A stretch of 64,000 bases of DNA from Patescibacteria group bacterium UBA4787 (GTDB lineage Bacteria > Patescibacteriota > Patescibacteriia > UBA2591 > UBA4787): NCBI GenBank assembly GCA_002402995.1, contig DHGX01000003.1, positions 82,309 to 146,308 on the forward strand, written 5' to 3'. Position numbers and translations under genes: made by a program. The notes under the pieces were generated by a model, which made no database searches, was not told the DNA's origin, and saw only the letters and a program-made list of their open reading frames with translations. Of this stretch, positions 2,544-61,651 are shown piece by piece (position 1 is the first letter of the stretch; the number at the start of each line of letters is the position of its first letter).

Positions 2544-2593
2544 TCTGCTTAACAAAATATTTTTTAATATAATTGAAATGGCAAGTAGTTAGC

Positions 2594-2813
2594 GCCTCTA
2601 TAGCTCAATGGATAGAGCGCCGGTCTCCTGCCCGCCACTGCTATTGCCCCCATAGCTCATTGGATAGAGCACTAGTCTTCGGAACTAGGGATGGCGGTTC
2701 GAATCCGTCTGGGGGCAGTGGCAATGGCAGGCGGGCCTTCGCCTCGCCGAAGTGGCTTCGACCACGCAGGCGGGTCGGAACCGGTGATGGGGGTCCGATT
2801 CCCTCTGGATGCA
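2594..2813 (+). other. Split tRNA-Arg(CCT)-like gene. A 5' half (2594-2630, through the anticodon-loop bases CTCCT) and a 3' half (2779-2813) flank the intact tRNA-Arg(TCG). It is either a disrupted gene or an intron-containing one.
   Basis: The 5' half has acceptor GCCTCTA, TA, D-arm GCTC-AATGGATA-GAGC and anticodon stem CCGGT with loop start CTCCT. The 3' half has AACCGG, TGAT, T-arm GGGGG-TCCGATT-CCCTC, acceptor strand TGGATGC and discriminator A. Joined, they give a perfect anticodon arm CCGGT-CUCCUAA-ACCGG (anticodon CCU, U33, A37) and an acceptor stem with 5 Watson-Crick pairs, 1 GU and 1 mismatch. Confidence 0.4.
2646..2717 (+). tRNA. tRNA-Arg, anticodon TCG.
   Basis: Hand-folded cloverleaf. 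Acceptor GCCCCCA/TGGGGGC; D-arm GCTC-ATTGGATA-GAGC; anticodon stem CTAGT/ACTAG with loop CTTCGGA; T-arm GGCGG-TTCGAAT-CCGTC; discriminator A. No encoded CCA. Confidence 0.85.
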
Positions 2814-4612: not shown

Positions 4613-5923
4613 ATGGAAACTTTATTTAATCATAATCAGGAATTAGAGCATCCATTGGCCGATCGGATGAGGCCGAAGGATTTTGATGAATTTTTCGGTC
4701 AAGAAAAATTAGTAGGCGAGGGGCAAATTTTGAAGGAATTGATCAAGAAAGACCAGATTCCTTCTATGGTTTTTTGGGGACCGCCCGGTTCGGGTAAAAC
4801 CACGCTGGCGTATTTAATCGCCGAAAAAACCAAATCGCGCTTTATCAAATATTCAGCCGTTACTAATACCAGCGTGGAGGCGAAGAAAATTATGACCGAG
4901 GCAATTGACGAACAAAAAATGTATGGCCGGCGCACGATTTTATTTATTGATGAAATCCATCGTTTTAACAAAGCGCAACAAGCGGTTTTCTTGCCGTTTG
5001 TGGAAAGTGGAGCAGTTATTTTAATTGGCGCCACCACTGAGAACCCTTCTTTAGAAATTATTTCACCCCTTTTGTCGCGCGTCCGAGTTTTTGCTTTAGG
5101 GGCATTGCCGCCGGAAGCCATTGGAAAGATAATTAAACGCGCTTTAACTGACAAAAAAAACGGATTGGGAAAATATAAAATTAAACTTGATAAAAAAGCC
5201 GTAGAGATTTTAATCCAGAGCTCTAACGGCGATGCTCGCGTTCCTTTGAACGCTTTGGAAATCGCCATCAAAATTGTTAAACCGGACAAACAGCGCGTTT
5301 ATCATCTAAGCGCAGAGTTGATTAAAGAGGCCTTACAGTATCGGAATATCAGTTACGATAAGTTGGGTGATGAACATTACAATGTTGTTTCGGCCTTTAT
5401 TAAATCTATGCGAGGCGGCGATCCAAGCGCCGCGGTTTATTATTTGGCGAGAATGATTGTTGCCGGCGAAAATCCGAGATTTATCGTCCGCCGGATGATT
5501 ATTTTTGCTTCTGAAGATATCGGCGATGCTGATCCCAAGGCTTTGTTGTTGGCGATCAGCGCGGCTCAGGCCGTGGAGTTCGTGGGCCTACCGGAAGTAG
5601 AAATTGTTTTGTCCCATGTAGCTATTTATTTGGCCACAACCGCGAAGAGCAATCGTACTTATCAAGCGCTTTTGGCCGCCAAAGAAGATGTGGAGAAATA
5701 TCTGAATCTACCTGTGCCGCTTCATTTGCGTAACGCCGTGACTCCTTTACTTGAAAAAATAGGCTATGGCAAAGATTATCTCTATCCGCACAATTTCCCC
5801 GACGGAAAAGTTGAACAAGTTTACCTGCCCGCTAGCCTGCGCAACAAAGAATATTACCGACCTGAACATTTATTAAAAAATAATAAAAAAGAAAAGGATA
5901 TTAAGGGTCAAGTGGTAAGCTAG
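4613..5923 (+). CDS. rarA: Replication-associated recombination protein A (RarA/MgsA AAA+ ATPase).
   Basis: Walker A GPPGSGKTTLA and Walker B ILFIDEIHRFNK. C-terminal MgsA helical domain (HYNVVSAFIKSMRGGDPSAAVYYLARM). I moved the start to the in-frame ATG at 4613, because the track start at 4505 would translate repeat elements. Confidence 0.85.
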   Translation: METLFNHNQELEHPLADRMRPKDFDEFFGQEKLVGEGQILKELIKKDQIPSMVFWGPPGSGKTTLAYLIAEKTKSRFIKYSAVTNTSVEAKKIMTEAIDEQKMYGRRTILFIDEIHRFNKAQQAVFLPFVESGAVILIGATTENPSLEIISPLLSRVRVFALGALPPEAIGKIIKRALTDKKNGLGKYKIKLDKKAVEILIQSSNGDARVPLNALEIAIKIVKPDKQRVYHLSAELIKEALQYRNISYDKLGDEHYNVVSAFIKSMRGGDPSAAVYYLARMIVAGENPRFIVRRMIIFASEDIGDADPKALLLAISAAQAVEFVGLPEVEIVLSHVAIYLATTAKSNRTYQALLAAKEDVEKYLNLPVPLHLRNAVTPLLEKIGYGKDYLYPHNFPDGKVEQVYLPASLRNKEYYRPEHLLKNNKKEKDIKGQVVS

Positions 5924-6012
5924 GCAGGCGGGCCTGCCGGATAAATTGCGAGACCGCAAATATTATCAACCCAAAATTAAGAGTTTAAAATCATAAACCA
6001 TATTTTTAATTT

Positions 6013-60424: not shown

Positions 60425-61168
60425 ATGAAAAATCATGAGACTGTCCTTATCCCGAGCGTTGGTCAGTTGCTCGAGCTTTCGGCCGCTGTGTTAAAACAGC
60501 TGCCGAAAGATTTACTCCCCGAGGAAGCGCAATACTGGATTGGCCATCAGAGCAGGTTAGGCGAAGTTTTACGGCAGGCGCTAAAAATCAGCTCGCAGGA
60601 TGATCTTTACTGGGGTGGTCTTGGTCTCTCGAACCATCGGTGGTTCCTTACCCGTGAAGTCCAGCTCTCCCGTTTAATCCAGCTCGGGTATCCCGAAGCC
60701 GCTGGCATGACCAAAGAAGCGTTCACCAAACTCATTCCGATTCCCGAGGACAAGGAGGGCGCGCTCTTGGTCGTCCCAGCCAATATCATTTCCATCGACA
60801 AGCAGATGAAACTGATCGGTGGCAGGAATAACCTTAATCTCAACAGCCTCAAGGACACCGTGTTAACACACGATACGCCTTACTGGATTTACGGCGTGGA
60901 AAACGGCAAGAAGATGTTGGGCAAATCACCCGACACCTGCGTTCAGGACTTCGCCAAACAACGTCGCGGTTTAACCGCGGTCGAAGGATCCAATCTCATC
61001 GCTCAATACCCAGACGTCTTGAAAGATCACTATATTGATCTTCCGGGCTCTCGGTCTGGTGCGGACCGCGTGCCTTGCCTCTTCCTCTACTTTGGCAGGC
61101 CCAGGCTGTGCTGCAATTTATCCGGCTATGCCAACTCCAACTATGGTTCTGCTTCCTGCCTACGCTAA
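60425..61168 (+). CDS. Hypothetical protein in a GC-rich island, possibly horizontally acquired.
   Basis: Strong RBS aaaggaggaa. Coding region visibly about 50% GC or higher. Its 3' end overlaps a 33-nt tandem repeat. A strong terminator follows at 61264-61301. Confidence 0.55.
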   Translation: MKNHETVLIPSVGQLLELSAAVLKQLPKDLLPEEAQYWIGHQSRLGEVLRQALKISSQDDLYWGGLGLSNHRWFLTREVQLSRLIQLGYPEAAGMTKEAFTKLIPIPEDKEGALLVVPANIISIDKQMKLIGGRNNLNLNSLKDTVLTHDTPYWIYGVENGKKMLGKSPDTCVQDFAKQRRGLTAVEGSNLIAQYPDVLKDHYIDLPGSRSGADRVPCLFLYFGRPRLCCNLSGYANSNYGSASCLR

Positions 61169-61651
61169 AGCTTCGGCAAGGCAAGCCTGCCTACGCTAAA
61201 GCTTCGGCAAGGCAGGCTTGTGGGAGTTAAGGAAATTTGGTTTTTGGCCTTTGGAAAATTGGAAAAGCCCCAACACAAAAAGTGTTGGGGCTTCTTTTTT
61301 TCTGAATTCGGCGTATTATGAAAATTAGGTTAATGCATCCTAAATCATAGTTTAGCCATAATTTATGAGCGAGGACGTCAAACAAAAGTCTTCTTTTGAT
61401 TTGACTCCGAACGAAGAAATTTCAAGCTTCGCTTATAATTTTGAACATGATTTGGCCTTGTTTTGAATTAAAGGTTTGCTATAATTGGTGAGCGGAGGAA
61501 CAGGCAAAAAGAATTTTTGTCTGATTCCGTAGCGAGCCAATTTCACTCGCGAAGCGAGTATAATAAAAACACCAATCTACGCTTTTATTTTTTTGTTTAT
61601 TTTTATTCGCAATTCTACATTCTATCTTCTAATTTCTAATTTCTACATGGT

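Follow-up and report, generated by a model that had tools for sequence, protein, structure and literature searches.

Bacterial tRNA genes that carry group I introns include those for tRNA-Leu and tRNA-fMet in cyanobacteria, tRNA-Ile in Azoarcus and tRNA-Arg(CCU) in Agrobacterium. A 2014 review regards the tRNA genes of bacteria as uniform in structure and names the self-splicing introns of groups I and II as their only significant diversity known (PMC4033280). Here we describe a nested arrangement located in a 64,000-nt stretch of contig DHGX01000003.1 from Patescibacteria group bacterium UBA4787; this whole stretch is referred to as the window, and coordinates are counted from its first letter. 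A complete tRNA-Arg(UCG) gene, held between two pairing arms, lies in a 148-nt insert, X, which separates the halves of a second tRNA gene within its anticodon loop. The second gene is assigned below as the same isoacceptor. Our literature search, which covered nested and intron-borne tRNAs, the tRNA introns of candidate phyla and insertions of palindromes or MITEs into anticodon loops, turned up no account of such an arrangement. We interpret X, with moderate confidence, as a palindromic insertion that split the resident tRNA-Arg(UCG) and brought a replacement copy with it, leaving the outer halves redundant.

The insert resembles the bacterial group I tRNA introns in that an intervening sequence sits in the anticodon loop and is present or absent among relatives. 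It differs from them in that it has no ribozyme core, is too short, lies at site 33/34 and holds a whole tRNA, and in that splicing is probably absent. In archaea, a C/D box small RNA is located in the tRNA-Trp intron, the tRNA introns of Thermoproteales are mobile and the split tRNAs of Nanoarchaeum have GC-rich leaders (PMC4033280, PMC10714607). The likeness to these systems consists of a functional small RNA in a tRNA intervening sequence, GC-rich complements that hold the halves together and mobile-element behaviour. The host of X is bacterial, however, as judged by its EF-P and gene order, no bulge-helix-bulge motif is found and the cargo is a tRNA of the same isoacceptor. Integrative elements that target tRNA genes, such as phages and islands, measure kilobases and have an integrase gene; fusion with the tRNA segment that they carry restores the host gene, and a repeated core remains at both ends. 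They too insert into a tRNA gene and offset the damage with tRNA sequence that they bring, but X is only 109–148 nt long, has no open reading frame (ORF), shows no repeated core and brings a whole tRNA that is separate from the host gene, which stays split.

A further likeness is to the Rickettsia palindromic elements, which insert in frame into protein genes, the REP/BIME sequences and the yeast mitochondrial GC clusters. These are likewise short, dispersed, GC-rich imperfect palindromes in an AT-rich genome, and one of the relatives of X lies in frame in rpsF. The intervening sequences that RNase III excises from bacterial rRNA share with X a helix extension at a hairpin loop of a structural RNA that varies among close relatives. 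Unlike the palindrome families, the family of X has a low copy number here and no cognate transposase has been identified. No member of a palindrome family is known to us whose loop contains a gene or which is located in a tRNA anticodon loop. X thus shares one or two features with each known system and fails a defining feature of each.

A tRNA gene inside a tRNA gene

The tRNA locus lies directly downstream of efp in the gene row rpsF-ssb-rpsR-efp, and the relatives of this EF-P belong to Patescibacteria (candidate phyla radiation) genomes throughout. The features given below are on the forward strand unless stated otherwise. The inner gene, tRNA-Arg(TCG) at 2646–2717, adopts the canonical cloverleaf, matches the Rfam family RF00005 with 69.4 bits (gathering threshold 29) and is called by ARAGORN with a score of 117.5; it is presumed to be the functional copy. 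When overlapping introns are allowed, ARAGORN also calls an outer tRNA at 2594–2813 (score 106.2) with an intervening segment of 148 nt. The acceptor stem of this outer tRNA (GCCTCTA/TGGATGC) contains a single mismatch, C3xU70, and one G·U pair. Its D arm is GCTC-AATGGATA-GAGC, its anticodon stem CCGGT/ACCGG and its T arm GGGGG-TCCGATT-CCCTC, and the discriminator base is A. The 5′ part (positions 1–33, 2594–2626) comprises the 5′ strand of the acceptor stem, the D arm, the 5′ strand of the anticodon stem, C32 and U33. The 3′ part (positions 34–73, 2775–2813) supplies TCG, GA, ACCGG, the T arm, the 3′ strand of the acceptor stem and A73. A preliminary description, made from the letters of the window, had recognised the complete inner gene, every listed piece of the two halves around it, the one acceptor mismatch and an intervening segment of roughly 148 nt, and all of these are confirmed.

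In control constructs the outer call arose in 2/1000 cases with shuffled flanks and in 2/1000 with random genomic flanks. A span of 317 nt covering the locus is 100% identical across three independently assembled contigs, one from a JGI metagenome (3300002703) and two from SRA runs (SRR5324156 and SRR1313283). This agreement excludes a misassembly at the junctions and disposes of the assembly artefact that had been considered at the outset. After in-silico removal of X, the outer gene is recognised as a tRNA with an ARAGORN score of 116.4, its deviations being C3xU70 and the T loop UCCGAUU (C55). Standard tRNA finders report the inner gene only, and ARAGORN in intron mode mislabels the outer gene as tRNA-Arg(CCU). 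Outer genes that are missed or mislabelled in this way could distort the tRNA inventories of candidate-phyla genomes.

The host gene and the site of insertion

Related loci were reached through EF-P and PilT, and L-numbers are the labels of the fetched loci used in the comparisons. The usual gene order in the clade is efp-pilT-tRNA-Arg(TCG)-tRNA-Lys(CTT), with an uninterrupted tRNA-Arg. In all sampled relatives pilT stands between efp and the tRNA. It is deleted in the window lineage, where its last 19 nt (2575–2593, gaaatggcaagtagttagc) are kept; these match gaaatgataagaagttagc, the pilT end and stop codon found directly 5′ of the tRNA in L068 and L004. With this remnant directly 5′ of it, the outer gene therefore sits at the standard tRNA-Arg(TCG) site. 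L068, whose EF-P is 94% identical to that of the window, has a plain tRNA-Arg(TCG) between the same left and right flanks as the outer gene of the window, and over positions 1–25 the two genes differ by one mismatch. A second comparison comes from a lineage distant from the window, a Buchananbacteria-like organism (L066/L208) with the nested form. L210 and L215, with PilT 89% and 91% identical to that of L066, have a plain tRNA-Arg(TCG) that is 1/33 bases off the outer 5′ part of L066. Because the plain orthologues with the same flanks read CT-TCG-GA, the split gene is assigned as tRNA-Arg(UCG), the same isoacceptor as the cargo tRNA.

Plain and nested alleles together define the insertion exactly. 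The host sequence ...CT|TCGGA... becomes ...CT|X|TCGGA..., where X (2627–2774, 148 nt) joins U33 on one side and U34 on the other without a seam. At the 3′ junction, TCGGA is common to the window, L065 and L066 and equals positions 34–38 in all plain orthologues. The outer 5′ exon is exactly 33 nt long in 4/4 nested lineages. The preliminary description had instead joined the halves after U36, giving the loop CUCCUAA and a tRNA-Arg(CCU). Joining U36 to AACCGG yields a 6-nt loop, and the sole 7-nt loop is CUCCUGA. The supposed CCT anticodon is the first three bases of X, and the outer gene does not qualify as a member of tRNA-Arg(CCU), given the plain tRNA-Arg(UCG) orthologues in the same flanks. 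Read as CCU, the gene would also have G at position 37 and not the A37 typical of ANN-reading tRNAs. From what is known of m1G37 and t6A37, G37 suits an Arg tRNA that reads CGN codons and is atypical for a reader of AGG. The parallel that had been drawn with the group I introns in alpha-proteobacterial tRNA-Arg(CCU) is coincidental, since CCT belongs to the insert. The idea of a tRNA gene disrupted by a second Arg tRNA as cargo is essentially right, with the host gene misidentified.

Structure of the insert

X consists of a 19-nt 5′ arm (CCTGCCCGCCACTGCTATT, 2627–2645), the 72-nt inner tRNA, an 18-nt 3′ arm (GTGGCAATGGCAGGCGGG, 2718–2735) and, in the window only, a 39-nt extra segment (2736–2774). 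The outer boundary of the 5′ arm is set by the plain and nested alleles. Without the extra segment, X is 109 nt long in L065 and L066, which come from the metagenomes that contain Ga0265296 and Ga0265297 (the latter is JGI 3300029288). The part of X that is not tRNA amounts to 37 nt in these two loci and 76 nt in the window, and it holds no open reading frame. The two arms pair with each other, with 13/19 Watson-Crick pairs, four G·U pairs and two mismatches, and the resulting helix continues the acceptor stem of the inner tRNA; this arm stem is present in the minimum-free-energy folds. The flanking inverted repeats of the preliminary description are therefore real, and their best pairing, 2627–2645 with 2718–2735, is in a longer register than the one given there.

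The window, L065 and L066 have the same sequence at arm positions 1–11 (CCUGCCCGCCA / UGGCAGGCGGG), a U·G wobble and a CxA mismatch included, and L005 has one change there. X is bounded by terminal inverted repeats, CCTGCCCGCCA and TGGCAGGCGGG, in which 11 positions with one wobble and one mismatch are conserved in three lineages. Arm positions 12–19 vary among lineages and are mostly still paired; the window has A-U at pair 17:2′, for example, where L066 has U-A. The G·U pairs make the arm helix better on the sense strand than on the complement, a bias that fits a role of the helix in the transcript. The units of the window and of L065 fold as a double cloverleaf linked by the arm helix, with z = −3.3 and z = −5.0, respectively. 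As an extended helix at the hairpin loop of a structural RNA gene, variable among close relatives, X follows the pattern of the rRNA intervening sequences.

The extra segment folds as a separate hairpin. It is made up of 30 nt (CCTTCGCCTCGCCGAAGTGGCTTCGACCAC) and, after them, a repeat of the arm end GCAGGCGGG. We note that this GC-rich 30-nt insert is enclosed by 9-nt direct repeats of GCAGGCGGG (2727–2735 and 2766–2774) and is absent in L065 and L066. The segment looks like a secondary insertion or a slippage duplication inside X.

Palindromes related to the arms

The arm motifs of X recur without a tRNA, and with the same ends, register and CxA mismatch, at other loci of Patescibacteria. Free-standing copies of 36 nt each are found in L035 (1524–1559, CCTGCCCGCATTGCTACGCAAAGCGTTGCAGGCGGG), L047 (4393–4428) and L048 (4030–4065), a 21-nt copy in L044 (5527–5547), and a relic just upstream of tRNA-Arg in L212 (4112–4164). 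The common pattern of the palindromes is CCTGCCCGC...GCAGGCGGG. The copy in L035 lies in frame within rpsF, in the part that encodes the C-terminal tail of ribosomal protein S6, and reads PARIATQSVAGG, which recalls the Rickettsia palindromic elements.

Within the 64-kb window there is one X and there are two related hairpin sites. The first is the free-standing hairpin GGCAGGCGGGCCTGCC (5923–5938), an exact match to arm motifs of X that combines the end of the 3′ arm with the start of the 5′ arm. It is located directly after mgsA, starting at the last base of the stop codon, and 0/100 shuffles matched. The second site, 61155–61216, holds two tandem 31-nt palindromes, CCTGCCTACGCTAAAGCTTCGGCAAGGCA(A/G)G, which overlap the 3′ end of the ORF at 60425–61168. 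Given this kinship, X is most readily placed in a dispersed family of GC-rich palindromic elements, as a member that has a tRNA gene in its loop.

Occurrence of X and condition of the outer gene

X is found at 33/34 in four lineages: the window, L065, L066/L208 and L005/L063/L064/L069. A scan of genome contigs with EF-P returned mostly plain tRNA-Arg(TCG)-tRNA-Lys(CTT) loci. The nested allele in L005 surfaced through a short-word BLAST of the tRNA halves against the fetched loci, and a metagenome pattern scan gave five matches, of which four are real and one (L067) is due to chance. Scans of viral contigs with both arm motifs produced chance matches only and no nested tRNA, and a protein database search with the spurious ORF that runs through the locus found no other copies (P0121 covers a plain tRNA). 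The tRNA is plain in all eleven other efp-pilT lineages sampled and in 3/4 close relatives of L066. The nested unit of L065 does not adjoin pilT.

The inner tRNA is intact in 4/4 nested lineages, and the condition of the outer gene varies. In the window it is complete, with the mismatch and the C55 T loop already described. In L065 it is flawless, with an encoded CCA and an ARAGORN score of 123.1. In L066/L208 it ends within the T loop and is not called by ARAGORN. The L005/L063/L064/L069 lineage has kept the 5′ half, the 5′ arm and the inner tRNA; it lacks the 3′ arm and the 3′ half, and its strains diverge in what follows the tRNA. With the outer gene truncated or half-missing in two lineages while the inner tRNA persists, the outer product is dispensable.

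The two copies also show mixed affinities. In both the window and L005, the D arm of the inner copy resembles that of the outer copy, and the inner tRNA of L066 combines a 5′ half of foreign type, like that of the L065 inner tRNA, with a 3′ half of host type. The plain tRNA of L068 is a mosaic of the window copies: its flanks and D loop are like the outer gene and its anticodon arm is the same as the inner one over 22 nt. Overall it is 92% identical to the inner and 85% identical to the outer tRNA of the window. Outer and inner copies evidently exchange sequence. Given such exchange, the plain alleles may be either ancestral or collapse products of the nested form.

A probable palindromic element with a replacement tRNA

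In the interpretation we favour, X would be a non-autonomous GC-rich palindromic element with a complete tRNA-Arg(UCG) gene in its hairpin loop. Its insertion would destroy the anticodon loop of the host gene and at the same time supply a working copy of the same tRNA, so that the cell would suffer no loss; we term this a ‘self-compensating insertion’. The unit would be transcribed as one RNA, either from the upstream signals of the host gene or by read-through from efp; no consensus sigma-70 promoter was detected in the interval from efp to the tRNA. The arms would pair into an irregular helix (~18 bp) that stacks on the acceptor stem of the inner tRNA and may keep the homologous tRNAs from mispairing. 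The inner tRNA would be freed by RNase P together with 3′ trimming, perhaps once RNase III has cut the arm helix, and CCA would then be added to it. The outer halves would be by-products that are not rejoined, and the outer gene would be free for truncation, conversion or loss. It is this route of transcription and processing, together with the absence of splicing and the mobility of X, that we infer; the anatomy and boundaries of X, its site in the four lineages, the plain alleles of close relatives, the kinship of the arms with the free-standing palindromes and the truncated or missing outer 3′ part in two lineages are directly observed. If this interpretation is correct, X would be a minimal selfish insertion that neutralises its own cost, and the GC-rich palindromes of these reduced genomes would be able to carry cargo.

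The junctions bear no footprint of the insertion mechanisms that were looked for. Between T33 and T34 no base is duplicated when plain and nested alleles are compared, thus there is no target-site duplication. By inspection, no recombinase core of at least 2 nt at both junctions is consistent with the plain allele, and the signature of an integrase is therefore not found. Subterminal hairpins in the style of IS200/IS605 are not present in either end of X taken separately.

Several points weigh against a replacement of this kind. The outer gene retains good tRNA structure in the window and is perfect, with encoded CCA, in L065; for a useless gene to be so well preserved, either the insertion must be recent or gene conversion must have acted. 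The outer anticodon stem of the window differs from that of L068 by two compensatory base-pair changes, which suggests selection for pairing or else transfer of the stem together with X. Strict conservation of the arms could equally well reflect recognition by a splicing or processing enzyme. Neither a mobility enzyme nor a cognate transposase was identified for X. The nested form was found in four lineages only, and the change between alleles may be a gain of X or a loss of X by recombination between outer and inner copies.

Alternative explanations

As the main alternative, X could be a new, protein-dependent tRNA intron of bacteria, one transcript giving both the inner tRNA-Arg(UCG) and a trimmed and ligated outer tRNA. 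We regard this as unlikely, although several features speak for it. The product of the outer gene would be either tRNA-Arg(UCG), with the junction at 33/34 (...GCGCCGGUCU-UCGGAACCGGU...), or tRNA-Arg(CCU), with the junction at 36/37 (...CUCCU-GAACCGG...). The outer gene minus X scores 116.4 in the window and 123.1 in L065, compared with 117–123 for plain genes, and its acceptor and anticodon stems vary between lineages yet remain paired. The sequence-invariant 11-bp arm helix, with its fixed mismatch and better pairing on the sense strand, is what would be expected of a protein recognition site. In the CCU reading, the cut sites would lie two base pairs apart and leave 2-nt 3′ overhangs, which by inspection is the geometry of RNase III; we treat this as a lead and not as evidence. 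An RNase III gene is located just upstream of pilT in the Buchananbacteria-like loci.

Damage to the outer gene speaks against splicing: in L066 it is truncated and in the L005 lineage half of it is missing, yet both retain the inner tRNA and the 5′ arm. Plain palindromes with the same arm motif are also present in spacers and within a protein-coding gene, and no splicing would be expected at such places. No ribozyme core is found by Rfam and no bulge-helix-bulge by inspection. The latter motif has a pair of 3-nt bulges at the splice sites with a 4-bp helix between them, and it could not be drawn in registers 33/34, 36/37 or 37/38 when these were inspected against the folds; nor could a kink-turn be drawn in the internal loop (CU / UCGGA). 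The CCU reading suffers from G37, atypical for a tRNA that reads AGG. In the UCG reading both cuts would be blunt, at the foot of the helix, and we know of no endonuclease that such cuts would match. Nor, to our knowledge, is there a bacterial enzyme system that rejoins a tRNA after cuts of this kind.

Were the outer halves nevertheless rejoined, a hitherto unrecognised pathway of bacterial RNA splicing would be implied. It would be the first non-ribozyme tRNA splicing in Bacteria, with one gene giving two tRNAs, and the locus would be a living analogue of the split or nested intermediates proposed for the evolution of tRNA genes. X might then represent a new class, a site-specific element of homing type, based on the conserved GC-rich hairpin and with a tRNA as cargo, that is removed by protein-dependent cutting and ligation, a proposal we consider doubtful.

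The nested form could also be old and vertically inherited, the plain alleles (L068, L210 and L215) being secondary and scarless products of recombination between outer and inner copies. This explanation, which we hold to be improbable, concerns origin only and is compatible with either replacement or splicing. The 5′ parts of the outer and inner copies form direct repeats, as do their 3′ parts (79% identity in the window), and a deletion from one repeat to the other would leave no scar. The mosaic L068 tRNA, in which an anticodon arm identical to the inner one over 22 nt is set in outer-like flanks and D loop, would be such a product. The L005 lineage, with 5′ half, 5′ arm and tRNA but no 3′ arm, resembles a one-sided collapse, and the likeness of inner and outer D arms in the window and L005 indicates gene conversion. 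However, most relatives are plain (the eleven efp-pilT lineages and 3/4 relatives of L066), thus many independent and precise losses would be needed. The L065 unit is not beside pilT, and the membership of the arms in a dispersed palindrome family points to a moving element.

What would speak for a degenerate or minimal group I intron, comparable to that of tRNA-Arg(CCU) in alpha-proteobacteria, are the site after the third anticodon base in the CCU reading, U before the 5′ junction and G at the 3′ end, as pointed out in the preliminary description. These bases are confirmed, but we consider the explanation extremely improbable. A search of Rfam over 2540–2880 at E ≤ 10 returned the inner tRNA and noise only, with neither the P3–P8 catalytic core of Intron_gpI nor hammerhead, twister or any other ribozyme. 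No P1 helix or internal guide sequence is found; the 19 nt at the start of X have the 3′ arm, not the exon, as their pairing partner. The true insertion point is 33/34, and the 37–76 nt that X has besides the tRNA are far below the catalytic core of ~100 nt (PMC4033280). An assembly chimera or chance resemblance has a negligible probability: the contig is metagenomic, and the L004 and L005 contigs break at this tRNA locus, but against this stand the identity of the three assemblies, the same architecture with diverged sequences in three other lineages and the rarity of the outer call in both sets of control constructs.

Other features of the locus and its relatives

A bidirectional, terminator-like hairpin of 12 pairs, found by a terminator scan at 2827–2855 and assigned to neither strand, closes both the tRNA unit and a convergent S41 peptidase gene. 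ORF169, which is located 3′ of the tRNA in L068 (L068 4575–5664, compared with window 2544–2593), is absent from the window.

Strains of the L005 lineage differ right after the 3′ end of the tRNA. In L063 and L064, GC-rich hairpins are placed there between GGCTCGCC repeats, and in L069 an M23 peptidase gene and ORF123 stand between the inner tRNA and tRNA-Lys. The tRNA 3′ end in this lineage appears to be an insertion hot spot. A comparable layout of 5′ fragment, hairpin element and complete tRNA is seen in L010 (4248–4342), where an 18-nt 5′ fragment of tRNA-Lys is followed by GC-rich hairpins (CGCCTGCCGGCAGGCAGGGATCC...) just upstream of a complete tRNA-Lys(CTT). In L004 (4206–4263; EF-P 86% identical), the tRNA after pilT starts normally (GCCCACATAGCTCAA), but a GC-rich hairpin of another kind (CCCCGACGTAAAGTCGGGG...) interrupts its D loop, and the contig stops after 44 nt more. 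ARAGORN intron calls in L010, L014, L202, L206 and L207 were rejected, being either composites of adjacent tRNAs or spurious hits.

The plain tRNA-Arg(TCG) of L210 (4045–4175) and L212 (4170–4290) is located between perfect AT-rich inverted repeats of 12–13 bp, which abut the tRNA ends or lie no more than 3 nt from them. The repeats are TTCCCGAATTATA / TATAATTCGGGAA and CCCGTACAAATT / AATTTGTACGGG, and through them the leader would pair with the trailer. The gene row at both loci is nusB-rnc-(orf)-pilT-tRNA. Finally, a tRNA-like gene with an oversized anticodon loop is present on the minus strand of L045 (2968–3051), in a metagenome-assembled genome labelled Saccharibacteria; ARAGORN calls it tRNA-Asn(att) with an 11-nt intron and a score of 112.3.

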